A stretch of 64,000 nt of DNA from Thermofilaceae archaeon (GTDB lineage Archaea; Thermoproteota; Thermoprotei; Thermofilales; Thermofilaceae): the NCBI GenBank assembly GCA_038861545.1, contig JAWCCZ010000001.1, positions 352,001-416,000 on the forward strand. Reading direction: 5' to 3'. The translations under genes and the position numbers were made by a program. Positions within the stretch are counted from its first letter, which is position 1. Every line of letters starts with the position of its first letter. Shown piece by piece: positions 6,710 through 54,889 of the stretch. The notes under the pieces were generated by a model, which did not search any database, was not told where the DNA came from, and worked only from the letters and a program-made list of their open reading frames with translations.

Positions 6710-7533
6710 GCTACCCACCACCATACAGCGTAAACTATTGATAAAAGTACCGAGACCACTATTACTAGGTAATCTTTATGCTTAAGGAAGTACTCATGAT
6801 ATGTTGACGAAGCCCTGCTACTAGGAGCTATACCTCTTGATTCAAGAGCCAGGGAAACCTCAAAGCTTCTTGTAATCATCAGCGATAAAAGAGGAATTAG
6901 AGCGTTAACATATAGAAGGAACCTCTTGGCTAGCGGTGTCTTTGCAAACTCTATACCCCTAGCCATCATAGCCTCTCTGACAGTGTAAAAGTCAGATACG
7001 AACATCTGGATTCCTCTAAAGAATAGTGAGGCAGCTACACATGCACCAAGGGGGAGTTTTAATGATCTGAGACCCCATACTAAATCTCGATCAGTTAACG
7101 TAGCAAGCAGTAACGTAGCTGAGAGAACCATAGCGAAGATTCTTAACACAAAAACGGTCGCATACATAAGCCCGGAGTCCGTAATCCGGATCTTCCATTC
7201 AAAGACACCTTTTTCCGCGTGAACACTCCACAGAACTGCCTCATAAAGCGGCCGTCCAGGTATATATGTGAACAACGAAAAAGTTAACACTATAAAAGCG
7301 CTCATACTAACTATCACCGCAATATACCTGTTTAGAGTTGACAGAGAAATACCAGCAGCGAAGCAAGATGCAGCGGCAATTAAGACTATGCTAAGAGCCG
7401 AAAGGGGGTCTTTTACAAATAAAATTGCAACAGATATAGAAAAAGGTAATGAAAATTTAGAAATAACATGCAAATTCATGTACCAGAATGATTTACTTTC
7501 TACACCTGCTAGTTCTCCTAGAATTGTTGGCAT
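6706..7533 (-). CDS. ecfT: ECF transporter transmembrane T component
   Basis: Polytopic protein with two X-R-G coupling motifs (MARG, ESRG); in an operon with the ECF ATPase. Confidence 0.9.
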   Translation of the reverse strand: MPTILGELAGVESKSFWYMNLHVISKFSLPFSISVAILFVKDPLSALSIVLIAAASCFAAGISLSTLNRYIAVIVSMSAFIVLTFSLFTYIPGRPLYEAVLWSVHAEKGVFEWKIRITDSGLMYATVFVLRIFAMVLSATLLLATLTDRDLVWGLRSLKLPLGACVAASLFFRGIQMFVSDFYTVREAMMARGIEFAKTPLAKRFLLYVNALIPLLSLMITRSFEVSLALESRGIAPSSRASSTYHEYFLKHKDYLVIVVSVLLSIVYAVWWWVA

Positions 7534-15920: not shown

Positions 15921-17165
15921 ATGAGTAAAGTAGCAGAGTACGCCTATGAAATAGCAGTTAAGCTGGCTTCTCAATCTAGGTTTGCAGGAAGCGAGGGGGA
16001 AAGTATAGCAAGGGAAATCGTTTATCGTGAACTGGAAAGCTTCGGTTACGAGGTTAAGCTTGAAGCTTTCTTAACTAAAGTCTATGAGGTGAAAAAAGCT
16101 GAGCTTAGAGTAATTTCGCCCGAAAGTTATGCCATCGAGTGCTCAGCTATCGGTTTTAGTGGGGAAACAGCTGAGGAGGGAGTTGAAGGTGAAATTGTAT
16201 ATATTGAGAGCGGCGATACGGCGCTCCTACCGGAAAATATAGGTTGGATAGGCCTCGCCAGCTCTAGGCCAAATAAAGATGCATGGAAGAAGCTGGTGGG
16301 CAAAGCCTCTGGGCTAATTGTCGCAGAAAATTCACCTTTCCGTGATCTGAGCAGAGTCGACATCCCTTACGAGTGGAGGGAAAGGTTCGGCAATTTACCT
16401 GCAGTCTATGTCCGTTACAGTGATGCTGTTAAACTTTTTTCCGCTAAACGTGTAATGTTAACGCTGCTCCAGGAGTACAGAGATGCGCAATTGTTTAACG
16501 TAGTGGCTGAGCTTAAAGGGACTAAGTATCCGAGTGAGGTGGTTTACGTGGTAGCGCACCTGGACAGCGAATACGGCGTTCCAGGCGCAACGGATAACGC
16601 AGCCGGCGTAGCGCTTGCATTGGCTGTTGCCCGAGAGTTGAGTAAAGAGAAACCCAAGCGGACTGTAAGGTTTGTCTTATTCAGCGGCGAGGAACTGGGG
16701 CTTCGCGGCTCTTTAGCATACGTTGAAGCACATAAAGGCGAGCTTGAGAAAACAGTGCTTGTAGTGAATCTGGACGTGCACGGCGCGGCACTGGGGACTA
16801 CTAGCGCGGTTATTACAGGGTCAAAGAGTTTACGCTACGCGTTTGAGTACGTTGCGAAAAAGCTTGGAATTAACATCAATGTAAGCGAGGACGTTATGTC
16901 AAGTGACAGCGCGAGTTTCGCCCGCCGAGGAGTGCCATCGATAAGTATTTTCCGCTCAAGCGGAACTGGGCATTTAATACATACGGTACAGGATTCCATC
17001 AGTCTCTTACACCCGAAAGGGTTTGGCTTAGTTTCTCTTTTAGCATTTGAGTTCATAAGAGAAGTAACTAACTCTGAAGAGGTGCCGTTCGAGAAAGAAA
17101 TTCCAGAAGATGTTAGAAGAAAAGTGGATGATTACTTTAGAAAAAGGCTTGGAATCTATGAGTAG
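15921..17165 (+). CDS. M28 family aminopeptidase with PA-like insertion
   Basis: Intact metal ligands: VAHLDS, GATDNAAG, SGEELGLRGS, NLDVHG, IHTVQD. Confidence 0.9.
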   Translation: MSKVAEYAYEIAVKLASQSRFAGSEGESIAREIVYRELESFGYEVKLEAFLTKVYEVKKAELRVISPESYAIECSAIGFSGETAEEGVEGEIVYIESGDTALLPENIGWIGLASSRPNKDAWKKLVGKASGLIVAENSPFRDLSRVDIPYEWRERFGNLPAVYVRYSDAVKLFSAKRVMLTLLQEYRDAQLFNVVAELKGTKYPSEVVYVVAHLDSEYGVPGATDNAAGVALALAVARELSKEKPKRTVRFVLFSGEELGLRGSLAYVEAHKGELEKTVLVVNLDVHGAALGTTSAVITGSKSLRYAFEYVAKKLGININVSEDVMSSDSASFARRGVPSISIFRSSGTGHLIHTVQDSISLLHPKGFGLVSLLAFEFIREVTNSEEVPFEKEIPEDVRRKVDDYFRKRLGIYE

Positions 17166-37819: not shown

Positions 37820-40800
37820 TCAAGCTACTTCGATGAGCTCCCCGCCCCTACCTCGAGATAGCGCCCTAACGCCTGATTCTTTCGCAGCTTTCAGGGCTAA
37901 AGAACTTAGGCTCTTATCGTCAGAATTTATATAAACGATATCCACCTCTTGCAGCTTATCTTTCACCTCGTAGGGAACTTTTTCAAACTGAACCTGGCTA
38001 AGGGATCTAACCTCCAATGCCGCTCGGTAGCCAAGTCTCTTTAAAGACTGGTCAAGAATCTTTTTAAGCCGCTCTGAATCTTCTGGCGTGAACACTAGTA
38101 AGTAACGTGGAGAGAGAAGTGTTACAGCTTCCTTGACTAATTCTTGAGAGGAGCGGATGAAGAGGGCTACACGCCCACTTCTAGCACTCCACTGCAAGGC
38201 TAGCTCGCGTACGAGAGAAGCCACATCTCTTAAGCATTGATTTGCAAAAGATGTGAAAATCGTCACTACTCTCGAATGAAGTTCGACTGTATAGTACTTG
38301 TCGGTTTTCTTCACGGCGATGGTGTTGTAGGATTTAAAGGCCCTTCCTTCAACTTGAGCATACTCGAAGTAAACTTTATAGTTTCTACCTTGCTCGAAAC
38401 TTTCCTCAAAAACTTCAACATTAAAAACGCTGACTTTATGCGCCCGCATCTCTTCAAGCCTTGAAGCGACAAACTTAGTGAAGGATTCAGCTTCTTGGGA
38501 ATCCCTAATAACAACCGGTATAGTTGTTACTAGTTCAACCGCTCTTTCTGCATCCTCTCTTCCAACTACTTCACTCTCAGGAGTCCATCTCCGCTTTAAA
38601 GAGGGGACAGCCAGTAGCACGGCTCTCATAGCCGGCTGTAAAGAGCCGAAGATCGATATAACTATAGAGGCGAGCACGGAAAATACCGCAGATGGAAGAT
38701 CCACTTTAGCGTCGACGGGCACCTGCAAATTAAATACATGAAACATGCGGAAAACCGCTAAACCCAACATGTATCCGGTAACGCCGCCTGCAAAGCCTAC
38801 AATGCAAGCACCGGTTATAAACAACACCGATAATTGATCTGGAGTAGCGCCAAGCGTTGAAAGCGTGTAGACTTCTCTTCTTAACTCATAGACAAACCCA
38901 ATAAACGACAGGAAAAGCATGAGTAATGCTATCACCGCGGGGACCACCATTTCTCCACCTCGAATTTCCAGCCTCGTACCTGGATAATAGACGCGCACAA
39001 TTTCACCCGGTTCGGATACATACACAGTGTAGCCACCGAGAACGCTTAGGCTTTCAGCAAGTTCATCGCTTTGGAATCGGTCGCTTAACTCAACGTATAC
39101 CTTGTTAGTATTTGCCCCAAGGAGTAGTGAATCCATATAATTCACGACGATTGTGCTTTCTGGAGCGACTTTCGTGGCGCTCATGCCGAATACAACAGTG
39201 GGAATCAGATCTTCACCATCGAGGTCCTTCAGCTGGGAGAACTTTCTACTGTCGAACACTCCCACAATTGTGAACTCCACTCCCTGTATTGATATTACAT
39301 CACCAACGCTTTTCTCCGTGCGCTTGGCAACTAGGTCACTGACTATTACCTTCCCTCTATCGCAGACGTCTTCGACTGCGCCCGCTATTAGCGTGCCTTT
39401 TAGAAGTTCTAAAACCGGAGAACCTCTTGATACTCCTATTATCCCACTTATCGGTACGCCTTGCAGGGTTTCTATCGGATTCATTGGGAAAAGCGCCAAA
39501 GCGTTGGGTGCAACCCAAGTAACTCCTTCTCTACCACTAATGAAACCAAGGCCCAATGGGTTTAAAGGCCCTGCTGGGGAAAGGCCCCTAGCGATCAGAA
39601 AAGTCTTACCAAGGAATTGAGAAACCCATCCGGCTTCTTGGTAACTGAGTGAAGAATAAGCAGCGAACGACGTTAAACATGTAAGGCCCGCTGACACCGC
39701 TGTAACCATCAATAGCATTAAAGTGGCTCTAGCTCTTCTCTTAGAGAAGAAGTTAACCGCGAAGTTGAAAATCGAGGAAGCCAGTCCCTCAAGTGAAGCG
39801 CCACTGGCAGTGCGCACTCCCCTTACAGTTACTACTTTCACTACACCAAGCCCCACTAAGGTAAGGCCTGCCGCTGCCGTGGTTACCGCTGCGGCTTCTG
39901 AACTCACGGTCAGCCCAGGGGTCACGGAGTAAGCAGCTAGGGTTAAAGTCACAACTAGCGCTAGAAAGGCTGTTACTCTTTTCCCTTTTTCACTGAAGAA
40001 TAGGCAAGCCATCAAGAAGCTGGCTATACCGCCGACTACGAGAAGGAAAATCGTGTACCACGGAGAGGGTCCAGTGGCTATTCTAGCTAGACGTTCGGAT
40101 ATCTCCATTAGCAAGGTAAAAGCTAGTTTTTGGTCAATGCTTACCCTTAGTCTATCTCCCTCTTTAAGCTTCAACTGCTCTACTGCTTGCGAGATCAAAA
40201 TGTTAGTGGATCCTAGGTAGTAACCATTTTCCTCTAGTTTTCTGACATTAGCCGTTAAGTTGAGTATAACCCGCTGCAGGTTTTCATTATTAGACGCGAA
40301 TATTCGCTCTGCTATAGTTGCAATACGTAGCGTCTCGTTTAGGCGTGCCGCGACGTGTTCAATAATTGTACCCCGGAATCCATCGATCTCATAATGTACA
40401 GTTAGTTCTACCTCTCTATCTGGGGGTAGTATAATGGAATTAGACATAAAATACAGCTCAGAAGCATAAGCTCCTAAAGCTAGCTGCTCCTTTGGGGAGA
40501 GGATCCTAAACATACTGTTTTCGAGAATAGGGGTATAGTTAGTTTCAACCGTGAAAATTGGAAGCTCTCCACTTAAAGAGGGGAGCGTCTCTAGAATTAC
40601 TCTGCCACCATACTCAACAGGCCATTCAATCACGAGCCCTTGCGCTAAGGAGTTTTCGTCAAGAGATAGCACGTAAGGGACAAAGTTGACTTCTCTTGAA
40701 AATGGCCCTAAAACCGCGAAGCTCTTAAAACCGGAAGGTAAACTTATTTCTGCTTGAGCCCCTTTCACTTCTACAACCAGGAGCAATGGTACTTCCACGG

Positions 40801-41092
40801 TGAACTGCCGCCGCCCCGGGAATCTTGGAAACATTGTCCTCGTAACAGTTACATTTATAGCGAAAAACCCCTCTACAGGTTTAGTGAAAAGGATTTTAAT
40901 AGTCTGTTTAGAAGTATCAAGCTCTAAATTCTGAGTAGTGAAATTACCAGGGGAAGAATATAACTGAATATTGGGAGTTGCGTAGGCAAAGCTATCTGAG
41001 GTTAAATAATGTGAAACATTAGCTAAGAGAGCTGGTTGAAAAGATAGCACGACGATCAGCAGCAGGGCCTTCAATAGCCGGAAACTTAGCAT
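37820..41092 (-). CDS. Giant FtsX/MacB-type permease (1090 aa) with N-terminal ectodomain and C-terminal cytoplasmic extension
   Basis: Signal peptide, TM bundle, MacB-like extracellular core, FtsX motif ELRREVYTLSTLGATPDQL..LF, AVPSLKRRW. Confidence 0.8.
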   Translation of the reverse strand: MLSFRLLKALLLIVVLSFQPALLANVSHYLTSDSFAYATPNIQLYSSPGNFTTQNLELDTSKQTIKILFTKPVEGFFAINVTVTRTMFPRFPGRRQFTVEVPLLLVVEVKGAQAEISLPSGFKSFAVLGPFSREVNFVPYVLSLDENSLAQGLVIEWPVEYGGRVILETLPSLSGELPIFTVETNYTPILENSMFRILSPKEQLALGAYASELYFMSNSIILPPDREVELTVHYEIDGFRGTIIEHVAARLNETLRIATIAERIFASNNENLQRVILNLTANVRKLEENGYYLGSTNILISQAVEQLKLKEGDRLRVSIDQKLAFTLLMEISERLARIATGPSPWYTIFLLVVGGIASFLMACLFFSEKGKRVTAFLALVVTLTLAAYSVTPGLTVSSEAAAVTTAAAGLTLVGLGVVKVVTVRGVRTASGASLEGLASSIFNFAVNFFSKRRARATLMLLMVTAVSAGLTCLTSFAAYSSLSYQEAGWVSQFLGKTFLIARGLSPAGPLNPLGLGFISGREGVTWVAPNALALFPMNPIETLQGVPISGIIGVSRGSPVLELLKGTLIAGAVEDVCDRGKVIVSDLVAKRTEKSVGDVISIQGVEFTIVGVFDSRKFSQLKDLDGEDLIPTVVFGMSATKVAPESTIVVNYMDSLLLGANTNKVYVELSDRFQSDELAESLSVLGGYTVYVSEPGEIVRVYYPGTRLEIRGGEMVVPAVIALLMLFLSFIGFVYELRREVYTLSTLGATPDQLSVLFITGACIVGFAGGVTGYMLGLAVFRMFHVFNLQVPVDAKVDLPSAVFSVLASIVISIFGSLQPAMRAVLLAVPSLKRRWTPESEVVGREDAERAVELVTTIPVVIRDSQEAESFTKFVASRLEEMRAHKVSVFNVEVFEESFEQGRNYKVYFEYAQVEGRAFKSYNTIAVKKTDKYYTVELHSRVVTIFTSFANQCLRDVASLVRELALQWSARSGRVALFIRSSQELVKEAVTLLSPRYLLVFTPEDSERLKKILDQSLKRLGYRAALEVRSLSQVQFEKVPYEVKDKLQEVDIVYINSDDKSLSSLALKAAKESGVRALSRGRGGELIEVA

Positions 41093-42394: not shown

Positions 42395-43876
42395 TTACTT
42401 TCTCCGACGTCTAAGCATCAGTAGAATTACCACGGCTATTACGGCAACCACACCTATTGACGCGTACATAGTTATAGGCACACCTTTTTCCATTAGTTCT
42501 GGTACCTCGGGATAGCTTGCCTCGATGTCCAGGGTTTCTATCAAGTAGCTGCCCCACTTATTCCAACCGATTCCTGGAGCCACTACCTGTATAATTAGGT
42601 AGTTGGCTCCCTTTACGGTGTGAACACCGCTACCTAAAATCACGAATTGATCCCGTGCAAGTCTTCTTTCCTCTCCATCGATGGTAGCTGTCTGATCTGC
42701 GGGCGAGAATACTATTGCTGTAGAAGGTGTGAAAAAGCGAACCTCCTGCCCAGGTCGCGAACCTATGAACGTGATACCATCGCCTATAAAGTCCTCAGTT
42801 ACTTCTCCACCGTATGTCTGCGCTGCGAGCACGGTTATATCCCCTGTGCTTTCTATTATCATGTCGAACCTGCCGATACCTAAAGGTAGGAACCAGTAAG
42901 CTTTCTGGGCTACATCTGTATCTGTAAATGAGTGCTCATTCATTACGCTAAGGTCGCTCGCCTTGTATACAGTAACCTTGCCCGCTTCTAAAGGCACGAC
43001 AACAAGAGCAGCGCTTCTACCGGTTTGCTGGTACGTTGCATGGTTGGGGAAGAAGAAAAGTTTGCCAACGTAGCCTCCAGTAATAGAAGGTACGTAAACG
43101 AACATCCCTAAAGCGGCGCTACATACTAACACGTCCCCTGTAGTTGTAAGCTCGAAGACGGAATCGTATCCCGCTGCAGCGCTAATACCGCCTTGCACCA
43201 CTCTGGATTGTATAATTGCGCGGGCGGTTCCCCTAGGGTCAACGGAACCGCTGGTTTCGAATTTGCCTACCCTATCTTTTAAACGCCATTCACTTTTTCC
43301 CAACGCTAAGAGGTAGAAGTTATGATGAACTAAATCCATAGAGTAACCGTACTGGTGAGTTGCTGGAGCCGGCATGAAAATGTAATGAGTGCCCCTAAAC
43401 CCCCCGTTTATGCTCGGATAAAACGTAGCTACTCCGGAAAACGGGTCGTCTTCGTAAGCGGCACTACCGCCGGTCAGTAATACGCCGACTCGCTTGTTTG
43501 AGACAACCTTGAAGTATATACCATACGACACGTAGAAAGTTGCCTTATCGAGCGCGTTAATCCGCGTGGAGTTTATCAGTAGCCCTGAAGTTATATCATA
43601 TATCTCTACCCTGGTATCGTCCTGATAAGCGACTATATCAAGGAGTGCATACCCGCCTGGAGGCGTGAAGTTAATTGCTTTCCCCCAAACTAGTTCAGCT
43701 AAGCTTGGCAGGTCGGTTGACGGAGGCACATAGCCGTAGTAAACATGCTGGTTAGCTTGAGCCGCGACTCTTTGAATAGGGGCTAGAAATGCTGGGAGAG
43801 AGGCTAGCATTAGAACTATAACCAGTAACTCCCTAGTAAGAAATCTTCTAAGTGAAAAAGCATTAAAAAATTTCAT
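42395..43876 (-). CDS. Surface protein with signal peptide, beta-rich (IgGFc-binding-like) ectodomain and C-terminal TM anchor
   Basis: Start moved to ATG 43876 (GGTGG upstream, 17 nt after upstream stop); IVAYQDDTRVEI, VVSNKRVGV repeats typical of IgGFc-binding-like domains; TM + RRRRK tail. Confidence 0.72.
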   Translation of the reverse strand: MKFFNAFSLRRFLTRELLVIVLMLASLPAFLAPIQRVAAQANQHVYYGYVPPSTDLPSLAELVWGKAINFTPPGGYALLDIVAYQDDTRVEIYDITSGLLINSTRINALDKATFYVSYGIYFKVVSNKRVGVLLTGGSAAYEDDPFSGVATFYPSINGGFRGTHYIFMPAPATHQYGYSMDLVHHNFYLLALGKSEWRLKDRVGKFETSGSVDPRGTARAIIQSRVVQGGISAAAGYDSVFELTTTGDVLVCSAALGMFVYVPSITGGYVGKLFFFPNHATYQQTGRSAALVVVPLEAGKVTVYKASDLSVMNEHSFTDTDVAQKAYWFLPLGIGRFDMIIESTGDITVLAAQTYGGEVTEDFIGDGITFIGSRPGQEVRFFTPSTAIVFSPADQTATIDGEERRLARDQFVILGSGVHTVKGANYLIIQVVAPGIGWNKWGSYLIETLDIEASYPEVPELMEKGVPITMYASIGVVAVIAVVILLMLRRRRK

Positions 43877-43893
43877 ATTTTTATCCACCGCCC

Positions 43894-45903
43894 CTAGTAA
43901 GTGCCGAATACCATGTACCTCGCGATGTTGACTATACTCACCAGCACTATACCCAGTATCTCGCCCGCGATAATTCCAACCGCTACCGGAACGCCAACTT
44001 CCTCGTAAGCTTTCCTGCCCCCGACTTTCAGTAGAGCGTACTTTACTGCCCAGACGATTAAAGGAGTAAATGTCCCCACGTGCCATGTATAGAAGTCATG
44101 TAGGCCTAGCATGAAGCCCAGCGGCTCAAGCGGCCACCATGGGAACCTTAACCTTAAGAAGACTAAAGCGCCAGCGAGTAGGAAGCCTACTAGACCAGGT
44201 ATAGAGGCGATGCTGAGTCTCGGATTATAGAATCCAGCGTCTCCATCCCAGAAGTAATCCCATTCTTTAGCTACTGGTAATTCCATGAATCCCCACGCGT
44301 GTAACGCGATGAATGTTAACGGTATTGCGATGACAGCCGTTATTATACTCCCTATAACCAGTAGTTTGTAGACAGTGTCAGCTCTAACGCCAGCCATCTG
44401 CGCGACCTTAAAGCTATCCATTGCACCCATCATCGTTGAGTAGTAGGGGCCGTAGGTATCGCATCCTGTGCCCCACCTGCATGTATGCGAAATTATGAAG
44501 AGCTTACCAGCAGGGTACTGAGGAGCGGCTGGCAGGGTATCTCCCACGAAGGGTTTCCAGTAGTAAGCGCCTCTCAGGAACGTGACGTTAGCAGTGTAAG
44601 CCCTAGCCCTTGTCAACACAACTACCTGAAGCCAAATAACGAATAATCCTAGGATAGCATCCTGAGGTTCTACGTTGGAAGCGATGAAGAGGGCGATTAA
44701 GCCTACTGCACCGAGTAGAACTAGAAGGTATGCCAGCCGGTATGATACTTCGCCCTCCGCGGATTTACCACCAGAAGTTGTTAACTTAAATGTTTGTGCA
44801 AAGTATTTCCAGTTAACTAGGATGAAGAATACTAGGATGCCGAGCGCCATGCCGGCAGAGATTACTTCAAAGTAGAATGGTTCACCGTAGTATATCATCC
44901 ACCACTTGCTCCACTGGCCGACCGTATATATACCCGTATAGTACCCGAAGTAGGACATTATCTGGGGCAGTAACGTGGTGAACACTAGGTGCGCGAACCA
45001 CATCGAGAACAGAGCATCCAGGGGGACGAGGAAGAAGAATGCATAGCGAAGCGGGTCTGTAGAGAACACTACGACTTGAGCTAGGCTCGACTGGAGCACA
45101 GGATATGCCTGGGTCATCTGGAACTGGCCAGTGGACCATGATAGGTAGTTCGGGCTCGTCAGCCATCCGTAAAAGTCCGGCAATCCCGGATAAGCTGAGT
45201 AAATCATGTAGGGTACGTAGAAAAGCACACCAAGCAGAAAAGCAATCTTAAAGTACTTCTTGAACTTGGTTGGGCTCGGCGTTAAAGCAGCCTCGGCAAT
45301 AAGCCATCCTTGCGCGTGTGGGAACGGCAGCACCTCTATCTCAACCCATAGTCTTCGAAAAACTCCGGCCCATCCTAGGAAGAAAGCTGCAGTAACGACG
45401 TACCAGAAGACGTACGTGCCAATTACAGGCATCCACTCATTGGCATACACAGAGAATAAGTTGTTAAGCGAGTTTCGGTAGAACATGCCCCTAACTGCAT
45501 CTGCCGACGGCATCCATATCATCGGTAGAGCATAACCGTGTGTCTCTGCTGTGGCAACCCGTATATTAAAGAGGGCTGCAGGTGTAGTATAGAAGCCTTT
45601 GAATACCGTGTACCAAGTAGCTATACCGGTCCCTATATAGATGAGGCAAAACATCTGTCTATCAATTTTCAACAGCCCTCTCTCCATGAGGAGCATCATT
45701 ATCGCGGCAACAGACCAGGGTAACGCGATTGCGCATAGAAGCCCGCCGGAGGGGCCGATGTTAATTCCTCCCGTACCCCAGGCGGCTGGCAGGAACAGGG
45801 TTTCAATAGTTATTAATGCCGATAGTAGAGCGGTGTAAACAATTACTACAAGCCATTGCTTGCTCGTTAAAACCCGGATTTCCTCACTTTTTGTCGCCAT
45901 CAC
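43894..45903 (-). CDS. OPT-superfamily-like polytopic membrane protein (DUF6785/DUF6784-like)
   Basis: About 15 TMs; FRRLWVEIEVLPFP and RLRFPWWPLEPLGF motifs; LKVGGRKAYE. Confidence 0.7.
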   Translation of the reverse strand: MMATKSEEIRVLTSKQWLVVIVYTALLSALITIETLFLPAAWGTGGINIGPSGGLLCAIALPWSVAAIMMLLMERGLLKIDRQMFCLIYIGTGIATWYTVFKGFYTTPAALFNIRVATAETHGYALPMIWMPSADAVRGMFYRNSLNNLFSVYANEWMPVIGTYVFWYVVTAAFFLGWAGVFRRLWVEIEVLPFPHAQGWLIAEAALTPSPTKFKKYFKIAFLLGVLFYVPYMIYSAYPGLPDFYGWLTSPNYLSWSTGQFQMTQAYPVLQSSLAQVVVFSTDPLRYAFFFLVPLDALFSMWFAHLVFTTLLPQIMSYFGYYTGIYTVGQWSKWWMIYYGEPFYFEVISAGMALGILVFFILVNWKYFAQTFKLTTSGGKSAEGEVSYRLAYLLVLLGAVGLIALFIASNVEPQDAILGLFVIWLQVVVLTRARAYTANVTFLRGAYYWKPFVGDTLPAAPQYPAGKLFIISHTCRWGTGCDTYGPYYSTMMGAMDSFKVAQMAGVRADTVYKLLVIGSIITAVIAIPLTFIALHAWGFMELPVAKEWDYFWDGDAGFYNPRLSIASIPGLVGFLLAGALVFLRLRFPWWPLEPLGFMLGLHDFYTWHVGTFTPLIVWAVKYALLKVGGRKAYEEVGVPVAVGIIAGEILGIVLVSIVNIARYMVFGTY

Positions 45904-46045
45904 GCATTTTCAACGAAGCTTAATTTAAATTTTACGCATAGGTTTAAAAAGGGTATGAAATAGGCGAATCTTATTTATCTTTCTGTTGATTAGTATAAAA
46001 AGAGGAGAGAAAGCTTTAAAGCGTATCCAGTTGTCGAGTGCTTGC

Positions 46046-49000
46046 ATGAACCTTAGAGTTAGCGGTAGGGAAAAGAAATCAATTCTAAGTGAAACCCTCG
46101 TACCTGCGGCACTAATGCTATTACTTACAGCTACTCCGATTCTAAATCCTCTAACCGCGGCTCAACCCACGCTAACTCCTACCCCTCACGGATTTGAGAA
46201 AATAATAGTTCATTTTAACAAGAGTTTATTTATTGAAGATGTTCAAGCTCTTTCGAAAAGCTCTAGGTTTACAGGCTATCCGGGTTTCTTTGAAGCGGCT
46301 AACTATATCGCAGATGTTTTTAAGGGAGCTGGTATTGCGCCATTAGGTAAAGATTACTTTGAATGGTTTGAGGTGACCGTACCTATTACGGGAGATTCCT
46401 GGATATCTGTAGAGGACGGCTTGAAGGTAGCCGTATACCCGCTGTACCCCAACCTTGTGAATCCGAGCCCATATAGAAGCGACGATTGGGATTACCTAGT
46501 TTATGTAGGGAAAGGCGAGCTTGAAGACTTTAACGGGAAAAATGTCTCAGGGAAATTCGTGTTAATGAATTTCGCCTGCGGGTGGAACTACTACTATGCA
46601 TTAATGCTCGGCGCTAAGGGAGTGGTTTTTGTGCCGGAATCGTCAGACGCTGTTACCAGACCAGAAGCCGACCAAAAGCTGACTCTTGTTCCAGTATATT
46701 TCCCCAAGCTGTACATGCCGCTTGAAAGAGAAGGGATTCAGCTGCTCGAGTTGGCGAAAAAAGCTGGTGATACTGGTATTAAGGTAAAAATCTTTTCTCA
46801 GATGCGGTGGGACTCAGTAAAGGTACCGAATGTCGTCGGTTTTATTAAGGGGAAAAATCCAGCAAAATCCAATAAAGTTGTTGTTATAGCGAGTTACTAT
46901 GACTCTTACTCGGTTGTCCCCTCGCTTTCCTTTGGTGCTGAGGATGCTTTAGGGATAGCTACTCTGTTACAATTTGCCAGGTTCCTAGCTGAAAACCCGC
47001 CAGAATACTCAGTGGCTTTAGTAGCTTTAGCCGGTCATTACCAAGCTCTCTGGGGAGCGAGAGAATTTGTAGAACGCCGTTTCGACGATGGGAGGGAGTA
47101 TGTTGCATTCGCCTCCATAGATTTGTCGAGCGAATCCGATCAGGTCGGAATTTATGTCCTCGGCTCGGCCTACTCTTATAGATACGCTGATATTCTAGTC
47201 AGGCGGTACACTTGGCTGGTCAGCAGAGCTTTTGGTCCTTGGTTAGCCGAAATACGGATGTTACTGGGAAGTAAATTTGGAGAAAACTTTGTCGATGGAG
47301 TTTTAGCAAGCTATCCCGGCTATATAAGGTCAGTACCAATGTACGAACCATACCGTTACGGGTTCTTACCTTCTTCTGCAGTCTTCCCATCCCATAATTG
47401 GTATCTTGCATCTCAAGTATACCTTTTCGATTCAGAACCCTTTACATTAGCAATGTACGGTGGAGGCTTCACATTTAGAACCACTAACGCCTTTAAAACT
47501 CGCCGCTGGACTCCCGCCGACAGGCTGGATTATGTGAATTTTGAAAATGTGTGGCCACAGGCTTACTTTATCCACTGCATACTTTGGGCAATGTTAAATG
47601 AAGATATCAACCTGCCAACTTCAAAGGAGAGGCTTCGCGACGATTGGGGGTACGTGACGTTGCGAGTCAAAGTTACAACCTATAACATGCTTACATCGTA
47701 CTGGGATACTATTAATTTTACGGAAAAACCAGAGTTGAAGGGTAAGCTTATAGCTTATGTAACTAGTGGTGGGCTCAGAATAGCCCAGAAAGTCAGCGAT
47801 GATGGTACAGTTACAATACACGGCTTAAAACCATACGCCGGAGGTGGAGTTGACATTTTCGCTATTGAGGATAACGGAAAGATTACTTGGACCACGGATG
47901 TCGGTGTATGGCAAGCTCCGGGATGGAAGGGTATACCTTTAACTACTCATCCTCATGAGAAGTTAATAGCGATCTTCGAGTGCGCTAGTATATTCATACC
48001 TTTCGTCTTCCAACCGACAGATTTTAGGACTCTATCCCTTACCTCGATCAATGATGCTAGGGCACACAGTCCTATGATTCGGCAGAACAGTTTGCAGACC
48101 GACATGTTCGCTATGGCGTTTGTTCAGCCAGGTGTTCCAGCCGAAGTAACTTTCACCATAGGGACTGGATTACCAAGCATAGTTCTGAATAATGCTTCGC
48201 CAGCAAAACCTGAGGGGTTCGGTTATACTTTGAACAAAGGCGAGCAAATTGTTTTAACCCCATTAGATGCTTTCAAAAACCTTTATACAATTGTTGACAA
48301 CAGGTACAATAATATAAAGAGCAGAAATGTTATAATACCTACAATTGAATTTTACGCTAACGCAACCCTCAAGCTGAAGAGCGAATTCGAGAAAATGCTC
48401 GAAGAGAGAAACTACTCCAAAGCTTTTGGTGCATGCCTCTTCGCCTGGGCCGCGCTTATCAACTGGTATAACACTGTTATGAGCGCAATAGGGCAAGTAA
48501 TTACATCGATTGCAGTTTTCTTCCTTATTTCATTACTATTCGCGCTCTTGTTTGAGCGGCTTGCTTTTAAGGCAGAGGGTAGCCGGAGACTATTCACCCT
48601 GCTACTTATCTTAGTGGTTGCAAATGCCGTACTTTATACACTTCACCCCGCCTACCACATAGCTACCAACTGGACAATCGTGCTACTTACAGTCACTTTC
48701 CTAGCATTTAACATCATCATGCTTTATATAGCTATCATGAATGCTTATTCAGCAGCTAAAATAATTCGAGAATCTAGAGTTGGTAAACACTTTGTTGAAG
48801 TCAGTCGAAGCGGATTAATGGTTGAAAGCATGACTCTTGCGATCGAAAACATAAAGAAAAGGAAACTGAGGACAATCTTAATCTTGGTTGCAACGACCGC
48901 GATCACGTTCGCTATGATTTCGCTCGCGTCGGTAACTTCTTCACCTGTAATGCTTCCTCAAGGTGTAAATACAACTCGGATGCCGGACTTTGAAGGTTTA

Positions 49001-50521
49001 CTAATTAGGGCCTACCCATGGGATCAATTGAACTTCCTTACCTACGAAATGTATAACAATTACCTAGAAGGTAAATGTTACATAGCCCCTAGAGCATTCT
49101 TATACCCTCCACCCTTACTGGTGGCTATGCCGGGTGTAACTACCGGGCTTCTCTACTTAGGTTTCAGCCCACAGCTAAAAACGCAGATCTACGGTATGCT
49201 TGTTTTATCTCCTAATGAAGTTAACGTATCCGGGTTAGATAGGTTAATAGTTAGGGGTAGGTGGTTTAGCGAGGGCGATGTATATGCCGTGATACTCACG
49301 GAGTCGGTTTCATCCAGCTTAAGCCAAGAGCTGGGTAGACCGATCGACGCGGGGTCAACCATAAAATTATGGGGTCTAGAGCTTCGGGTAGTCGGCATAA
49401 TCAGTGACCGCGTTGCAAACTTTACAAACCCGGACGGTGAACCAGTAACTCCCATAGACCCTCAATCCCCCGTAGCAACTCCTCTCCACTTATCCGCAAG
49501 GAATATAATGGTAATCCCGTATTCGCTGTACAGGCTAATAGCTGTACCTCCAACAGTTACCAATATCGCCGTAAAACCTCTCAATGAACGGCAGTTAATC
49601 GAGTTGAAGGGTTTACTTCCTTCAATAGTATCCTACCCGATTTACTTACACTGGGGCGGGGAACTGAGAGCTTGGGTTATGAGGCAGTGGGTTAGTGCGA
49701 TAGGTTTCGAGTTTATAATAATTCCAGCCATTTTAGCAGCTGCATCCATACTGGACTTAATGCTCGCCTCTGTTTACGAGCGGAGAAGGGAGTTGTATGT
49801 TTTCACGGCCGTCGGCATGGCGCCATCTCATGTCACAACCGTTTTCTTAACTGAAGCATTAACCTACGTAGTACCAGCAGTATTCTTTGGATACGTAACA
49901 GGAATTCTAGCTACTAATGCTATGTTAGCTGTGGGTGCATTTCCAAGCGGGCTTTACCCCAACTTTACTTCGTTAGCGATACTAGTTGTTGTAGGTCTCT
50001 GCACTTTACTTGTCGTAGTTGCAGCTTACTATCCGTCAACCTTAGCCAGCAGGCTTGCTATTCCATCTCATGTGAGAAGGTGGTTATCCGCTGAGAAAGG
50101 CCCTGCAGGGGATGAGTGGAGGATAACGTACCCATTAATCCTTTCTTCGGCGGGAGAAGTCTACGGCTTTATGAATTTCTTAAGTGAGTACATGAGGGCT
50201 CTTGAGTTGAGAGAGAGCGCCTTCTTCGCGGAAAAAATAGAAATATCTGAAGAGGAGAAGGGTGGAGACCACGTTATCCGGTTGCACGCGCACTGCAGAT
50301 TTGCGCCCTATGATCTGGGTATAAGGAGTGACATATTAATCACAGCCATCAGGAAGAAGGATGCAAGCAATTACGTCTTTGACGCTCTAATCAAGCGTGT
50401 GGAGGGCTACTGGCAGGCTTGGAGGGGCACAGCACTTACAGTCGCGGGTGATCTTCGGAAGGAGATAATAGCATGGAGGGCTTTAAGCCCTGAAGAAAGG
50501 AAGAAGTACACGCCCAGATAG
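46046..50521 (+). CDS. Giant FtsX/MacB-type permease with M28-peptidase-fold/PA ectodomain (~1490 aa)
   Basis: SRFTGYPG, VYVGKG (PA), ASYYDS, GAEDALG; TM bundle; SVYERRRELYVFTAVGMAP FtsX motif; ATG 46046 lies 26-31 nt after TTTAAA (ORF track starts at 45986). Confidence 0.82.
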   Translation: MNLRVSGREKKSILSETLVPAALMLLLTATPILNPLTAAQPTLTPTPHGFEKIIVHFNKSLFIEDVQALSKSSRFTGYPGFFEAANYIADVFKGAGIAPLGKDYFEWFEVTVPITGDSWISVEDGLKVAVYPLYPNLVNPSPYRSDDWDYLVYVGKGELEDFNGKNVSGKFVLMNFACGWNYYYALMLGAKGVVFVPESSDAVTRPEADQKLTLVPVYFPKLYMPLEREGIQLLELAKKAGDTGIKVKIFSQMRWDSVKVPNVVGFIKGKNPAKSNKVVVIASYYDSYSVVPSLSFGAEDALGIATLLQFARFLAENPPEYSVALVALAGHYQALWGAREFVERRFDDGREYVAFASIDLSSESDQVGIYVLGSAYSYRYADILVRRYTWLVSRAFGPWLAEIRMLLGSKFGENFVDGVLASYPGYIRSVPMYEPYRYGFLPSSAVFPSHNWYLASQVYLFDSEPFTLAMYGGGFTFRTTNAFKTRRWTPADRLDYVNFENVWPQAYFIHCILWAMLNEDINLPTSKERLRDDWGYVTLRVKVTTYNMLTSYWDTINFTEKPELKGKLIAYVTSGGLRIAQKVSDDGTVTIHGLKPYAGGGVDIFAIEDNGKITWTTDVGVWQAPGWKGIPLTTHPHEKLIAIFECASIFIPFVFQPTDFRTLSLTSINDARAHSPMIRQNSLQTDMFAMAFVQPGVPAEVTFTIGTGLPSIVLNNASPAKPEGFGYTLNKGEQIVLTPLDAFKNLYTIVDNRYNNIKSRNVIIPTIEFYANATLKLKSEFEKMLEERNYSKAFGACLFAWAALINWYNTVMSAIGQVITSIAVFFLISLLFALLFERLAFKAEGSRRLFTLLLILVVANAVLYTLHPAYHIATNWTIVLLTVTFLAFNIIMLYIAIMNAYSAAKIIRESRVGKHFVEVSRSGLMVESMTLAIENIKKRKLRTILILVATTAITFAMISLASVTSSPVMLPQGVNTTRMPDFEGLLIRAYPWDQLNFLTYEMYNNYLEGKCYIAPRAFLYPPPLLVAMPGVTTGLLYLGFSPQLKTQIYGMLVLSPNEVNVSGLDRLIVRGRWFSEGDVYAVILTESVSSSLSQELGRPIDAGSTIKLWGLELRVVGIISDRVANFTNPDGEPVTPIDPQSPVATPLHLSARNIMVIPYSLYRLIAVPPTVTNIAVKPLNERQLIELKGLLPSIVSYPIYLHWGGELRAWVMRQWVSAIGFEFIIIPAILAAASILDLMLASVYERRRELYVFTAVGMAPSHVTTVFLTEALTYVVPAVFFGYVTGILATNAMLAVGAFPSGLYPNFTSLAILVVVGLCTLLVVVAAYYPSTLASRLAIPSHVRRWLSAEKGPAGDEWRITYPLILSSAGEVYGFMNFLSEYMRALELRESAFFAEKIEISEEEKGGDHVIRLHAHCRFAPYDLGIRSDILITAIRKKDASNYVFDALIKRVEGYWQAWRGTALTVAGDLRKEIIAWRALSPEERKKYTPR

Positions 50522-50523: not shown

Positions 50524-52476
50524 GTGAATCATATGGGAAGTCCGTTGGTTACAGCTCAGAGTAAGGCTTTAACCAGTAAGGTCGTTTTAATGTTCCTGTT
50601 CTCTGCACTTGTACTACAGCCTCTCGTAGTTTACTACTACCTGTTGACTAACAGCTACTACGCTTTCTCGTACTGGATAACCGTACTTTTATTTGCGGAA
50701 ATTGCCAGCTTAGCTAGAGCTGACTTCACCAGCAGGGAACTGTATCTCGTTCTTACGTTTCAGCCTGTCGCTTTTGCCTATTCTCTGTTTTTCATCAACT
50801 TTATTAGGAACATGTACTTCGCTTACAGTGAACCTTCCAAATACTTCGGGATCGCCCAGCACGTGCCTAGCTGGTGGGTCCCTCCAGAAAACGTGGTACA
50901 ATCCATTTACCTGTCTAAACTACTTTTCTTCGAACCAGCATGGGCACTACCGATAGGGTTATCACTTGCCTTCCTAGCGTTGACTGTGTTAACTGATGTT
51001 TCGCTAGGTTACTTAAGTTACACCATATTCGTAGTCGAAGAGAAGCTCGAGTTCCCATTTGCTCGAGCCTCTGTAGCTATGGTTGAAACCCTAGCGTCTA
51101 GAGATCCGAACTATTTAAGGACTCTATTCGCATCCTGCATTATAGGCATACTACTCAACATAGGCTTAAAGTTCCTACCCTACATAATGTCAGTATTTAT
51201 GTTAGGAGGAGTGTTCGTCGCTGTCGGAACTCCTTTCTACGGTTACGACTTTACCCCCTACCTCGATTACATACTACCCGGCGCCGGGTTTGTTTTAGTA
51301 ACAGATCCCTTAGCTTTTGTAAGCGGTTTCCTTATTCCCCCAGCAGTGGCTGTGGTTCAGTTCCTAGCATCATTTCTCCTCTACTTCGTTGGAACTCACA
51401 TGATAACTCGCTTTAAACTTTGGCCTGAAGAAAGCCTATGGACAACAGGCTGGGGGTATTGGACGCTACAGTACAGATCTATGATATACTTCTACGTATC
51501 GTTTTTCATCGGGCTAAGCTTAGCCGCCATGTTAATCCCCCTGGCTGTTAACCCAACTCCTCTAAAGCGGGCATTTAAAGCGCTTGGCAAAGCTGGGGGG
51601 AAAGGCTTCTCAGCTAAGATGTTACTAGGGGTTTTCTTCGTTTCATCTATCTCGATGACCATGCTATCCTGGGCGTTAACCGACTTCTCCTTCCCAGTGT
51701 ATATTTTACTTTTATTAATAGTCGGCGGGACTTTCTTTGCAACTTATATAGCAACGGCATCCGCAGGTGTTACTGTTTTCGGTACAAATGTCCCATACTT
51801 AAGAGAGTTGTCGATATACTTCTCCGGCTACCAAGGCAAGGAGATATGGTTCGTCCCGCTTCCAGCCACCCTTTCCAGTGCTCCTGTGGGAACGATCGGC
51901 GTGACCCTAGCTTCTCCCTTGGGGGGGTCATCAGTTGCACAAGCCTTGCTTCAAGCTGATGTACTGGGAGTTGAGCATAGGGAGTTTTTCAAAGCTTATG
52001 CGATACTGGTGTTGGTAAGCATAGTCAGCGGCTTTTTCTTGACTAACTTGTTCTGGTACATTTCGCCTATACCCTCAAGTGCTTACCCATATACAATAAC
52101 AGGATGGCCTGTTGACGCGTTGAGCTGGGCTAGGATGATGGTCTGGGTGTGGAGTGGTTACCTTTTCAGACCTATCTGGATCGCTGCGGGCTTCGCTGTG
52201 GGAACTGCCTTGTACGCAGCAGCCAATTTCGTTCTGCGAGCACCGTATCTCCTGATAGTGGCGATAACGGGAGCTGGTATGGGTATACCATGGGCTTTCT
52301 CGCAGATGATAGGTTCCATTATTGGAAGGCGAGCCTTAAGGTCGGCGTTGGGAGAAAACTGGGGCAGGTACTTGTATTTGTTAGTCACCGGCATTTTCCT
52401 CGGAGATGCCATCATGGAAACGATGAGGATACTGTTGATAGTGCTGGCTAGATCACAATGGCTACTGCCGTTCTAA
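50524..52476 (+). CDS. OPT-superfamily-like polytopic membrane protein
   Basis: About 15 TMs; VVEEKLEFPFA and PIPSSAYPY motifs; starts 2 nt after the M28-FtsX stop. Confidence 0.72.
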   Translation: MNHMGSPLVTAQSKALTSKVVLMFLFSALVLQPLVVYYYLLTNSYYAFSYWITVLLFAEIASLARADFTSRELYLVLTFQPVAFAYSLFFINFIRNMYFAYSEPSKYFGIAQHVPSWWVPPENVVQSIYLSKLLFFEPAWALPIGLSLAFLALTVLTDVSLGYLSYTIFVVEEKLEFPFARASVAMVETLASRDPNYLRTLFASCIIGILLNIGLKFLPYIMSVFMLGGVFVAVGTPFYGYDFTPYLDYILPGAGFVLVTDPLAFVSGFLIPPAVAVVQFLASFLLYFVGTHMITRFKLWPEESLWTTGWGYWTLQYRSMIYFYVSFFIGLSLAAMLIPLAVNPTPLKRAFKALGKAGGKGFSAKMLLGVFFVSSISMTMLSWALTDFSFPVYILLLLIVGGTFFATYIATASAGVTVFGTNVPYLRELSIYFSGYQGKEIWFVPLPATLSSAPVGTIGVTLASPLGGSSVAQALLQADVLGVEHREFFKAYAILVLVSIVSGFFLTNLFWYISPIPSSAYPYTITGWPVDALSWARMMVWVWSGYLFRPIWIAAGFAVGTALYAAANFVLRAPYLLIVAITGAGMGIPWAFSQMIGSIIGRRALRSALGENWGRYLYLLVTGIFLGDAIMETMRILLIVLARSQWLLPF

Positions 52477-52492: not shown

Positions 52493-54889
52493 ATGCCCAG
52501 CGGGCAGATCAGCAAGAGTACATGGAATCGCAATGACAAATCATTACTGTCTAACAGGAAGTTTATAACGGTTTTAACCTTATTTTCTATAACTGCTCTA
52601 TCCCTCTTTTCGGTTAGAACAGTAGCCGTCGGTGGCGAGATAGCTGGTTGGGATCACTCCTTTCACTACACTAATGCATACCTGATATACTACTTCTTCT
52701 TGCCAGATGGTAGCCCGCTGGGTTATGATCCTTGGCACATGTTAGGCTGGAGCCCGAACCTCTACTACAATTTAGGGACTTCGCTTTTCGTCACGTTATC
52801 CTACAGCTTTCTATCACCACTGTTGGATATGAAATCAGTCTACAGCCTATGCGTCGCGCTCAGTTACGCGCTTCTAGCTCCAGCGACGTTTATTCTAGTG
52901 TACGCAATGACCGGGTCGTACACCACCGGCCTCATAGCTGCTCTCATCAGCGTTGCAGTCTTCGACGAAGAAGATTCATGGATATCGGCAGGGTGGAGGC
53001 AGGTTCACTATATAGCTATGTGGCCCCAACGGTGGGGGATCGTTACAGGTATCTCAGCCCTAGGTTTGTTTATACTCGCTTTACGCTATAAGCGAGCCGG
53101 TGTGTGGGAATTTCTCCTGGCCTCCTTAGCTGCTCTCCTGCTAGCTTGGGCGACTCTTTCGCACGTTGTAATGGGTGCGGCCACCCTTATCCTAATGTTA
53201 GTGGCCGCTGTTTTCAAGCTAGCCGAGGACATAATAGTTAGAGGAAAGAGGGAAGCATTAAACCATATTTACTTGCTGTTATTCACAATTATGCTTTCCT
53301 TTGGTTTAATGGCATTCTGGGCTGTTCCGTTACTGGAGACCAACCAAGAGTTTCACGGGTTGTATACGCTTACATGGGAGCTCGGAGTTGGAGTTATAGG
53401 TACGATAACTTCCTCCTACCCATTCTATTTTAACTTACTTGTACCATTAGGGCCAGCTCTTTCTCTTTTTAAACAGCGGGAGAAAAAAGCATCAATCTGG
53501 GCTTTGTACGCAGGTTGGCTTTTATTCACACTTACAGTTCTCTTCGCGTCAAGGGTAATACCCGGCAACATGATAGGTTCGCTCAGCATCTACACTATGC
53601 TTTTAGCCCTAGCTCTTTATTTGAAAACCCGAGGCGGTTTAGCCCATATTTTACTTCCTACATCGGCTACTCTGCTGCTGTGGTTGGCTACTGGACCTAG
53701 CACATACGTGGTTAACCTCTTAGGCTTACCGCTAGACCTGAGAAAGCTCCCACTCGTAGAATGGTTGGGTTACGGTAAGTTCGCAGGTTACGCCAGGTAT
53801 ATTTTCTTAGCTTACTACTCAGTTACGGTCTCCAGCTTAGCATCTTGGGCGGTGGATCACTTGAAAAGTGAGAGCGACTCTAGAACCCCCGAGTTGCGAA
53901 CGGTGGCGCTCCTCCTTCTTTCTCTTATCGTGGCAGGGTTTCTAGGACCAGTTTTACAGAGTTTCCCTAAAAACACCGATTTACTGGGTTCTTCTGAAAG
54001 TAAAAAGTTCTGGCTCATCGAAGAATTTCCGCTTTACCAGAACGTAAGTCTGTTCGTAAACTCGCTCAGCTTGCTAGGGATCGAGGATAACACGTACTTG
54101 CTTGTCCAGGATCTAAGCGACAACTTCGCCGACTGGAGCACTTTCTGTCACAACCATTTCGTATACGAGTTCCCGTTGTACATCGGGAAACCAGTAATCG
54201 GCGGGATTGTTTGGACAAGGTACGTCACCCAGCCTATCTCAACTACCGAATACTCTAGGATGTTTTCAATGGATAATGCCTACTGGGCTGAAAATATCGA
54301 GATATTTTATTCGCAGCTGAAAGAACTCGGCATCTCCTATGTTGCCGTGTTTGATTCACGATTAAAAGATTCCTTGAAAAAAAGCGATCTCTTTGAAGAA
54401 GTCCTCTCAATCCCCCCTTACACGCTGTTTAGAACTAGAGAGTTCAACCAAATAGTAACCATCAACTCGTCCAGTGCACGTATTGAGAACGTTGTTATTC
54501 GACCAAACCTTATCCGCTTTACGATTAGAGCTAAGCCGATGGAGGTTTACCGAGTTAAAATAAAGTTGGTAGCTTTCCCTCGCTGGGTTGTAACAACGCA
54601 GCCGGAGGCTTTTTTCCTCAAGATCTTGACGTACAACCCCTGCATAGTTGAGGAAACCTCTCGAGCGTGGGGGTATCCAGTCGGTTCGAAAATACCATTC
54701 TTCGACCTGTTGATAGTTCCAGCGTCAGAAGCTACGACAGTTGAATTGAGGTACAATCCACACACCATCGGCGACTGGATTACGACCCTAGCGCTACTTG
54801 TAGTAAGTGCAGCTGTAATTACCTTTTTGGCGTCGCGGCCAGTATTCTTTAAACTTTTCATTAGAAGGCTCTCCAAACAGCAGTACTAA
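52493..54889 (+). CDS. GT-C-fold-like membrane protein (PTPS-related membrane domain family)
   Basis: First loop GWDHSFHY...YDPWHMLGWSPNLYY, about 13 TMs, C-terminal extracellular domain and final TM. Confidence 0.65.
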   Translation: MPSGQISKSTWNRNDKSLLSNRKFITVLTLFSITALSLFSVRTVAVGGEIAGWDHSFHYTNAYLIYYFFLPDGSPLGYDPWHMLGWSPNLYYNLGTSLFVTLSYSFLSPLLDMKSVYSLCVALSYALLAPATFILVYAMTGSYTTGLIAALISVAVFDEEDSWISAGWRQVHYIAMWPQRWGIVTGISALGLFILALRYKRAGVWEFLLASLAALLLAWATLSHVVMGAATLILMLVAAVFKLAEDIIVRGKREALNHIYLLLFTIMLSFGLMAFWAVPLLETNQEFHGLYTLTWELGVGVIGTITSSYPFYFNLLVPLGPALSLFKQREKKASIWALYAGWLLFTLTVLFASRVIPGNMIGSLSIYTMLLALALYLKTRGGLAHILLPTSATLLLWLATGPSTYVVNLLGLPLDLRKLPLVEWLGYGKFAGYARYIFLAYYSVTVSSLASWAVDHLKSESDSRTPELRTVALLLLSLIVAGFLGPVLQSFPKNTDLLGSSESKKFWLIEEFPLYQNVSLFVNSLSLLGIEDNTYLLVQDLSDNFADWSTFCHNHFVYEFPLYIGKPVIGGIVWTRYVTQPISTTEYSRMFSMDNAYWAENIEIFYSQLKELGISYVAVFDSRLKDSLKKSDLFEEVLSIPPYTLFRTREFNQIVTINSSSARIENVVIRPNLIRFTIRAKPMEVYRVKIKLVAFPRWVVTTQPEAFFLKILTYNPCIVEETSRAWGYPVGSKIPFFDLLIVPASEATTVELRYNPHTIGDWITTLALLVVSAAVITFLASRPVFFKLFIRRLSKQQY

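Follow-up and report, generated by a model that had tools for sequence, protein, structure and literature searches.

Proteins with an M28 metallopeptidase fold occur both as enzymes and as binding modules. The bacterial PA-domain M28 aminopeptidases, namely BSAP/YwaD of Bacillus subtilis (PDB 6hc6 and 6hc7) and the Aneurinibacillus AM-1 enzyme (2ek8), are soluble di-zinc enzymes in which a His-Asp-Glu-Asp-His ligand set is served by a Glu base, and acidic residues in M28 sites bind the free alpha-amino group of the substrate. In the transferrin receptor (TfR), nicastrin and nicalin, an M28 fold that has no metal site can act as a binding module. A catalytically dead metallopeptidase domain of another type, the LytM domain of EnvC, works with the FtsX system in FtsEX-EnvC. 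Here a gene that combines a metallopeptidase-like head of the M28 type with an FtsX-type membrane module was analysed in a 64,000-nucleotide stretch of the genome of a Thermofilaceae archaeon (GenBank assembly GCA_038861545.1, contig JAWCCZ010000001.1, positions 352,001 to 416,000 of the forward strand), referred to below as the window and numbered from its first letter. The head of the encoded fusion protein has the fold of a PA-domain M28 aminopeptidase and has lost the canonical catalytic set; the residues that have taken its place are conserved across a large family, and the gene is paired with one for a membrane protein that is probably a distant relative of the OPT transporters.

The fusion gene and its parts lie as follows, with residues numbered on the 1511-amino acid version throughout and with the evidence in parentheses.

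45986-50521, plus strand: gene for the PA/pseudo-M28 and MacB/FtsX fusion (open reading frame list and translation; Pfam M28, MacB_PCD and FtsX)
46091-46159, plus strand: N-terminal hydrophobic segment, residues 36-58, with Arg/Lys before it; membrane anchor or signal sequence (hydropathy scan)
46178-47782, plus strand: PA and M28-fold head, a pseudo-peptidase, residues 65-599, with the PA insert at about 138-263 (AlphaFold, Foldseek and VIA-align; the phmmer match to 2ek8 takes in the PA part)
47783-48475, plus strand: remaining part of the first ectodomain, residues 600-830, beta-rich with three long helices running towards the membrane (model secondary structure; outside the VIA-align rows)
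48482-48745, plus strand: three transmembrane helices, residues 833-920 (hydropathy; helices in the membrane-half model)
48869-50059, plus strand: complete MacB-type unit, residues 962-1358, comprising one transmembrane helix, a MacB-like periplasmic core domain and three FtsX transmembrane helices (Pfam, Foldseek, profile search against PDB sequences)
50060-50518, plus strand: conserved C-terminal cytoplasmic alpha/beta domain, residues 1359-1511 (hydropathy, alignment, model)

The open reading frame holds 1511 codons from a TTG start, and an identical database protein (P0003, 1491 amino acids) begins 20 codons further downstream at the ATG at 46046. Pfam finds Peptidase_M28 (PF04389) at residues 282-386, where only the first half of the profile is matched (41.6 bits against a cut-off of 21.3), and FtsX (PF02687) at residues 1243-1357 (43.7 bits), with MacB_PCD just under its cut-off (24.3 against 27 bits). 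In the hydropathy scan the anchor at 36-58 is followed by a 770-residue outer domain, three transmembrane helices (833-920), a basic cytoplasmic linker, a further transmembrane helix (962-984), a second outer domain of about 250 residues, the three FtsX helices and a 150-residue cytoplasmic tail, a topology that places the PA and M28 head outside. The region singled out in the preliminary description of this DNA (46200-47640) corresponds to residues 72-551 and so falls within the head. A decayed pseudogene was considered and is ruled out by the intact 1511-codon frame, six intact paralogues and hundreds of conserved relatives.

An AlphaFold model of residues 59-830, built with an alignment of 66 relatives, reached a mean pLDDT of 95 and a pTM of 0.92, and its best structural matches in both Foldseek and VIA-align were PA-domain M28 aminopeptidases. 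VIA-align placed BSAP first (Z 29.5), followed by 2ek8 (Z 29.1; Foldseek E 1e-23) and the core of the Aeromonas/Vibrio leucyl aminopeptidase, 1amp (Z 28.9, root-mean-square deviation 2.4 A over 265 of 291 residues), and further down by glutamate carboxypeptidases II and III (Z about 27), TfR (Z 26.4) and glutaminyl cyclase (Z 25.9). These matches span model residues 7-541 and end near 557 at most, and residues 65-599 of the protein are modelled with a PA and M28 aminopeptidase fold. Together with the Pfam M28 score they place the homology beyond chance. A profile of the family, run against PDB sequences, matched the bacterial PA-M28 aminopeptidases at 4e-34 and 3e-24, the Aeromonas enzyme and TfR at about 1e-14 (TfR 2e-14), nicalin at 1.9e-10 and nicastrin at 6e-3. 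The enzymes with the same fold are thus the best matches by sequence and by structure alike, but the fusion head is part of a membrane protein and carries Tyr, Glu (with Asp adjoining), Tyr, Asp and Trp at the ligand positions and His at that of the base. With TfR1 and glutamate carboxypeptidase II (family M28B) it shares a membrane-anchored ectodomain of PA and M28 type (Z 26-27.5), and with TfR, a non-catalytic receptor, an N-terminal anchor followed by a PA (apical) domain and a protease-like domain without the canonical ligand set. Those two proteins, by contrast, are eukaryotic, cross the membrane once in type II orientation and form dimers; they have a C-terminal helical domain and other ligand replacements, and neither an FtsX module nor an OPT partner. 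No match to a TfR-type helical domain was seen in the ectodomain model, where the matches end near model residue 557 and helices 701-771 were not searched alone.

The fate of the active site could be followed by comparison with an intact relative encoded in the same window, outside the module, at the positions listed here.

15921-17165, plus strand: intact PA and M28 aminopeptidase, used as the reference (full Pfam M28 profile, E 4.5e-37)
46895-46903, plus strand: Tyr304-Tyr305-Asp306 of the fusion at the H-x-D motif, with the first zinc ligand changed from His to Tyr304 (BLASTP, MAFFT, family census)
46940-46945, plus strand: Glu319-Asp320, Glu319 in the column of the bridging Asp and Asp320 one position later (BLASTP, phmmer, family census)
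47036-47041, plus strand: His351-Tyr352 at the Glu-Glu pair, with the general base changed from Glu to His351 and the ligand Glu to Tyr352 (BLASTP, MAFFT, census)
47120-47122, plus strand: Asp379, the sole canonical ligand kept (BLASTP, MAFFT, census)
47507-47521, plus strand: Trp508-Thr-Pro-Ala-Asp512 at the H-T-x-x-D motif, with the last zinc ligand changed from His to Trp508; Thr, Pro and Asp are conserved and the first position varies (MAFFT, census)

The intact enzyme reads VAHLDS, TDNAAG, SGEELGLRGS, NLDVHG and IHTVQD where the fusion head reads IASYYDS (Y304), GAEDALG (E319, D320), AGHYQALWGA (H351, Y352), SIDLS (D379) and RWTPAD (W508). BLASTP pairs HLDS with YYDS, GEELGLRGS with GHYQALWGA and NLD with SID, and MAFFT pairs IHTVQD with RWTPAD, so that the loss of three ligand motifs proposed in the preliminary description (VAHLDS to IASYYDS, SGEELGLRGS to AGHYQALWGA, IHTVQD to RWTPAD) is borne out. 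Its further statement that only the Asp residues of GAEDALG and SIDLS remain holds for Asp379. The bridging Asp aligns with Glu319, four residues before the conserved Gly in the D-x-x-x-G register, both in BLASTP and when phmmer is run with 2ek8 and the Aeromonas enzyme; of the five ligands only Asp379 is therefore strictly unchanged. The bridging position shows a conservative change from Asp to Glu with an Asp adjoining. Across the family, His351 and Asp306 are conserved as well.

In place of the set His, Asp, Glu, Asp, His the head carries Tyr304, Glu319 (next to Asp320), Tyr352, Asp379 and Trp508, and the Glu that acts as general base ahead of the ligand Glu is replaced by His351. Because both the di-zinc ligand set and the general-base Glu are missing, the head, as read from its sequence, cannot be a canonical M28 peptidase. 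In the Aeromonas aminopeptidase the metal site formed by Asp117, Glu152 and His256 suffices for catalysis, and the equivalents of two of these three ligands are missing in the fusion head. Among both the phmmer and the structural matches was PDB entry 2anp, titled a 'functional' E151H mutant of the Aeromonas enzyme, in which His can serve as the general base and both zinc ions are retained.

To place these changes in the family, relatives were gathered in two ways. A word-indexed search found 82 clusters of M28 and FtsX proteins of 1450-1850 amino acids in Thermofilaceae, Bathyarchaeia, other Thermoproteota, WS1 and Planctomycetota. An exhaustive search with the PA and M28 part returned 2451 proteins when E ≤ 1e-3 was required, of which 460 reached E ≤ 1e-30; the top 150 are almost all about 1500 amino acids long. 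Clustered at 50% identity, the family amounts to 460 clusters or more, and it was seen at 488 or more metagenome loci. Residues were counted in 208 full-length archaeal and bacterial members. The catalytic position is His in 186 of them, Tyr in 12 and Glu in none; the ligand Glu is replaced by Trp, Tyr, Phe, His or Asn, and the last His by Gly, Arg, Asp, Asn, Lys or Trp. The first His is Tyr in 113 members, Phe in 14 and still His in 71. Asp306 is invariant, the Asp379 position is Asp in 178 of the 208, and position 320 is Asp or Glu in 175, with 319 or 320 acidic in nearly all. Ranked by conservation among 222 core columns, Asp306 comes first, Gly357 second, Arg359 11th, His351 16th and Asp379 19th, and positions 304, 319, 352 and 508 fall between 71st and 178th. 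Zinc site 2 still has its His/Asp/Asp set in one sub-family, whose pattern is H-D-E-H-W-D-G. His also stands without exception at the catalytic position in the 80 distant metagenome loci, which read Y/F-D-E-(S/Q/N)-H-(F/Y)-D-(D/N), and all six paralogues of the source genome read G-H-(Y/A/W)-(Q/N).

As judged from these alignments, canonical di-zinc chemistry appears to be absent throughout the family, its loss being ancient and family-wide. His351 and Asp379 are among the best-conserved columns, which argues that the site was remodelled rather than decayed, and the triad of an acidic residue at 319/320, His351 and Asp379 is under selection where the metal centre used to be. Conservation among the six paralogues is 33% for the PA and M28 part and 36% for the FtsX helices, against 23% for the rest of the ectodomain and 25% for the MacB-like domain. 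That the head is conserved across paralogues suggests that the copies share a function and do not each recognise something different. In one distant member (P0059, 1830 amino acids) a peptidyl-prolyl isomerase domain of PPIC type precedes the M28 head, at residues 246-308, which may hint at peptide or protein handling.

The membrane half was modelled with a pLDDT of 87.5, and Foldseek matched it to MacB, LolCDE, YtrF, HrtB, YbbP, BceB and isolated MacB periplasmic domains; the family profile matched MacB among PDB sequences at 4.5e-20. The fusion carries a MacB-type periplasmic core domain and the FtsX domain of three transmembrane helices after one transmembrane helix, which are the features of a type VII ABC permease. 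With FtsEX-EnvC, FtsEX-PcsB and the type VII ABC systems (MacB, LolCDE, YtrEF, HrtBA, YbbAP, BceAB) it shares the FtsX/MacB permease fold and an extracytoplasmic domain working outside the membrane. It differs from the type VII systems in its extra transmembrane helices, its C-terminal cytoplasmic domain, the lack of an ATPase gene in cis in archaea and the OPT-like permease gene alongside, and from FtsEX-EnvC in that the dead peptidase is of M28 rather than M23/LytM type and is covalently fused, whereas there the dead domain is supplied by EnvC. By profile comparison, the first three transmembrane helices (residues 815-935) show no significant similarity to the FtsX domain (hhalign probability 0.4%), and the picture of two fused MacB units would come from topology alone. 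The tail domain (1359-1511) is present in the whole family, with near-invariant Trp, Arg, Gln, Trp-Arg and Tyr residues; it has no Pfam match, and the lone candidate for it, the aromatase/cyclase 3tfz, is matched weakly in Foldseek (E 2e-3).

Two neighbouring genes recur with the fusion.

50524-52476, plus strand: partner gene for a 650-amino acid polytopic membrane protein, a putative distant OPT relative, starting 3 bases after the fusion stop codon (homologues beside all six paralogues)
43894-45903, minus strand: divergent neighbour, a 669-amino acid DUF6785/DUF6784 membrane protein, a second OPT-like component recurring with the module (Pfam; recurrence; Atlas links DUF6785 clusters to OPT)

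The source genome (1.63 Mb in 12 contigs) encodes six fusion paralogues, each of about 1480-1547 amino acids, among 13 FtsX matches in all. A homologue of the partner gene adjoins the fusion in all six, and the DUF6785/DUF6784 protein adjoins three or four of them. The pairing was also found in a set of 40 archaeal loci from metagenome-assembled genomes of Thermofilaceae, Brockarchaeota, Bathyarchaeia and Thermoprotei, 30 of which had enough downstream DNA to judge: in every one of these an OPT-like gene lies within 100 bases downstream on the same strand. It holds in 53 of 61 loci of the distant bacterial-type branch represented by the 80 distant loci. The relation of the partner family to the OPT/YSL oligopeptide and metal-chelate transporters (PF03169) is very distant. 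It is seen most directly in the partner of another paralogue (C1:473728-475716), which matches the Pfam OPT model over nearly its whole length (35 bits against a cut-off of 25.8, E 8.5e-9) and whose product is related to that of the window's partner (BLASTP 3e-23). PF03169 is matched by 3 of 30 members of the partner family, and the Atlas neighbours of the family are OPT clusters (score 0.96). The window's own copy had no Pfam match, PF03169 included, and the partner-family profile found nothing among PDB sequences. Known OPT proteins are proton symporters that work alone, with no outer receptor or ABC-type partner. A complex prediction for residues 811-990 with the OPT-like partner scored 0.03, which has no bearing either way.

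No ABC ATPase gene adjoins the fusion in any of the six copies or in the 40 archaeal loci, and small free-standing candidates of MacB type are encoded elsewhere in the source genome; candidate free-standing ABC ATPases lie at C3:20764-21492, C5:60848-61594 and C6:18904-19659. On the distant branch, 38 loci have enough room to judge, and 10 of these carry an ABC ATPase of about 250 amino acids on the strand of the fusion, no more than 6.5 kb downstream; the order of fusion, OPT-like gene, gene of about 2 kb and ABC ATPase recurs on one strand (L069, L075, L088, L101, L102, L110, L118 and others). Within the window, the sole open reading frame with Walker A and LSGGE motifs (5036-6775, minus strand; 563 amino acids from the first start codon, 580 from stop to stop) is 40 kb from the fusion. 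The window also encodes two giant FtsX proteins on the minus strand (37820-41092, 1090 amino acids; 60737-63562, 941 amino acids), with FtsX/MacB_PCD matches, no M28 head and no adjoining ABC ATPase. Two further genes near the module have no family match. The first (42395-44086, minus strand) encodes 563 amino acids, with a hydrophobic stretch at the N-terminus, a body rich in beta structure and, at the C-terminus, a transmembrane anchor followed by RRRRK; its homologues recur near the module in many other archaeal loci and stand in three tandem copies in L037. The second, a 798-amino acid open reading frame directly after the OPT-like gene (52493-54889, plus strand), has homologues next to the module in L017 and L023, the two closest loci, and in no others.

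DNA of the window is present in hot-spring metagenomes of two studies. In a sediment metatranscriptome library, two short contigs fall in the fusion gene (46831-47170, which spans the remodelled site, and 48576-49037) at 97.6-98.8% identity. They are a weak hint of transcription, DNA carry-over being possible, and the synonymous nature of 10 of the 13 differences is consistent with purifying selection.

The old site carries strongly conserved new residues, the head has a PA insert, and the gene is consistently paired with an OPT-like one; together these point to a working, non-decayed pocket of a membrane machine. The explanation that fits best, to which a probability of roughly 0.5 is given, is that the PA and M28 head is a non-catalytic pseudo-aminopeptidase, a capture head that passes substrate to the OPT-like permease, or gates it, under control of the FtsX module. 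The head would be the extracytoplasmic working part of a MacB/FtsX-type (type VII ABC) membrane protein acting with OPT-family transporter-like proteins, and would hold the terminal group of an external substrate without cleaving it. The pocket would be lined by Tyr304/Tyr305/Asp306, Glu319/Asp320, His351-Tyr352-Gln353, Arg359, Asp379 and Thr509-Pro510 with Asp512. The N-terminus of an oligopeptide would be the simplest guess for the ligand, because M28 sites bind a free alpha-amino group through acidic residues. An ABC ATPase, encoded elsewhere in archaea, would drive conformational changes of the FtsX module by which substrate is passed to the OPT-like permease or the permease is gated. The fold, the loss of the catalytic set, the conserved new residues, the membrane architecture and the strict gene pairing on which this scheme is built were all observed; from them we infer that the head binds a ligand, what kind of ligand this is, that the fusion and the OPT-like protein touch, and that ATP is needed.

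The preliminary description had called the domain a ligand-binding receptor rather than a protease. That it is no canonical M28 peptidase, that it forms the outer head of a MacB/FtsX-type protein and that none of 208 members has the catalytic Glu all agree with this, and a receptor is a plausible reading of the sequences; its picture of a site where only Asp residues are left is weakened by the conservation of His351. Several observations weigh against a non-catalytic capture head. The metal of M28 enzymes sits precisely where His351, Asp379 and the acidic residue at 319/320 make up a conserved triad, so that a one-metal site is possible, and the mutant in 2anp indicates that His can be a general base at this place. 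Among paralogues, other parts of the protein diverge faster than the head, a pattern less suited to a receptor that determines specificity, and a GH3 glycosidase among the neighbouring genes of the window points as much to glycans as to peptides.

The same triad is also an argument for the strongest alternative, a re-tooled enzyme, which we regard as possible but rather doubtful. The head would then be a hydrolase or other catalyst, either with one metal held by Glu319/Asp320, His351 and Asp379 (together with Tyr304, or with His in relatives) or with His351 as general base, and it would trim substrates ahead of their uptake by the OPT-like permease. The counts and high conservation ranks of the site columns given above, including His351 in the 186 relatives and in all 80 distant loci, speak for it, as do the 71 members that keep the first His, the sub-family with the full His/Asp/Asp set of zinc site 2 and the functional E151H enzyme. 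Against this, the protein studied here has Tyr at the first His, aromatic residues stand in for the ligand Glu, the equivalents of Glu152 and His256, of the metal site sufficient for Aeromonas catalysis, are gone in every member, and the functional mutant is one that retains both zinc ions.

Somewhat less likely still is a structural or regulatory dead domain that takes no small ligand, a protein-protein module that would relay movements of the FtsX module and so gate the OPT-like permease or control another surface protein, much as the degenerate LytM domain of EnvC does. Besides that precedent, such a shared mechanical part would be expected to be as conserved across the six paralogues as the membrane core, as the head is, and the strict pairing with OPT-like genes agrees with it. 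Yet the most conserved polar residues lie at the former active site and not on the outer surface, a PA domain is usually a ligand- or peptide-binding insert, and no contact partner was identified.

The suggestion of the preliminary description that an archaeal example may bear on the origins of nicalin and nicastrin is not supported, and an archaeal forerunner of these eukaryotic proteins is very improbable: the M28 clan is shared, nicalin is matched by the family profile and one distant member, P0073, scores above the Pfam Nicastrin cut-off (27.3 bits), but bacterial PA-M28 aminopeptidases, the Aeromonas enzyme and TfR all outscore nicalin, nicastrin reaches just 6e-3, the present protein has no Nicastrin (PF05450) match at E ≤ 1, the family is common to Planctomycetota, WS1 and other bacteria as well as archaea, and the replacement residues (His-aromatic-Gln) are specific to it. 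Neither protein is among the best 50 structural matches of the ectodomain model, an absence that does not exclude either. Nicalin and nicastrin are M28-clan folds without a metal site that act in membrane complexes, as the fusion head would be; they differ in their weak sequence relation and in partners that are unrelated, the translocon and gamma-secretase. The family therefore looks like a separate, independent loss of catalysis and not a eukaryotic forerunner.

To our knowledge, catalytically dead M28 receptors have been described only from eukaryotes (TfR, nicastrin and nicalin), and a literature search found no paper on the M28-FtsX fusion family. A large prokaryotic family would thus have made the same move independently, with the head fused to an FtsX/MacB engine and the gene tied to those of OPT-like permeases. 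The conserved triad of His, Asp and an acidic residue offers a clean test case for the re-purposing of a di-zinc site. If the head binds substrate, it would link two transporter families thought to work separately, and six large gene sets of this 1.6-Mb genome could be given a function. More tentatively, it could be the substrate-capture subunit of a new kind of importer, in which OPT-family secondary transporters receive peptides or metal chelates from an ABC-type mechanotransmission protein of FtsX/MacB fold. Were this so, it would be an OPT-family counterpart of binding-protein-dependent transport, present six-fold in a nutrient-scavenging hot-spring archaeon.

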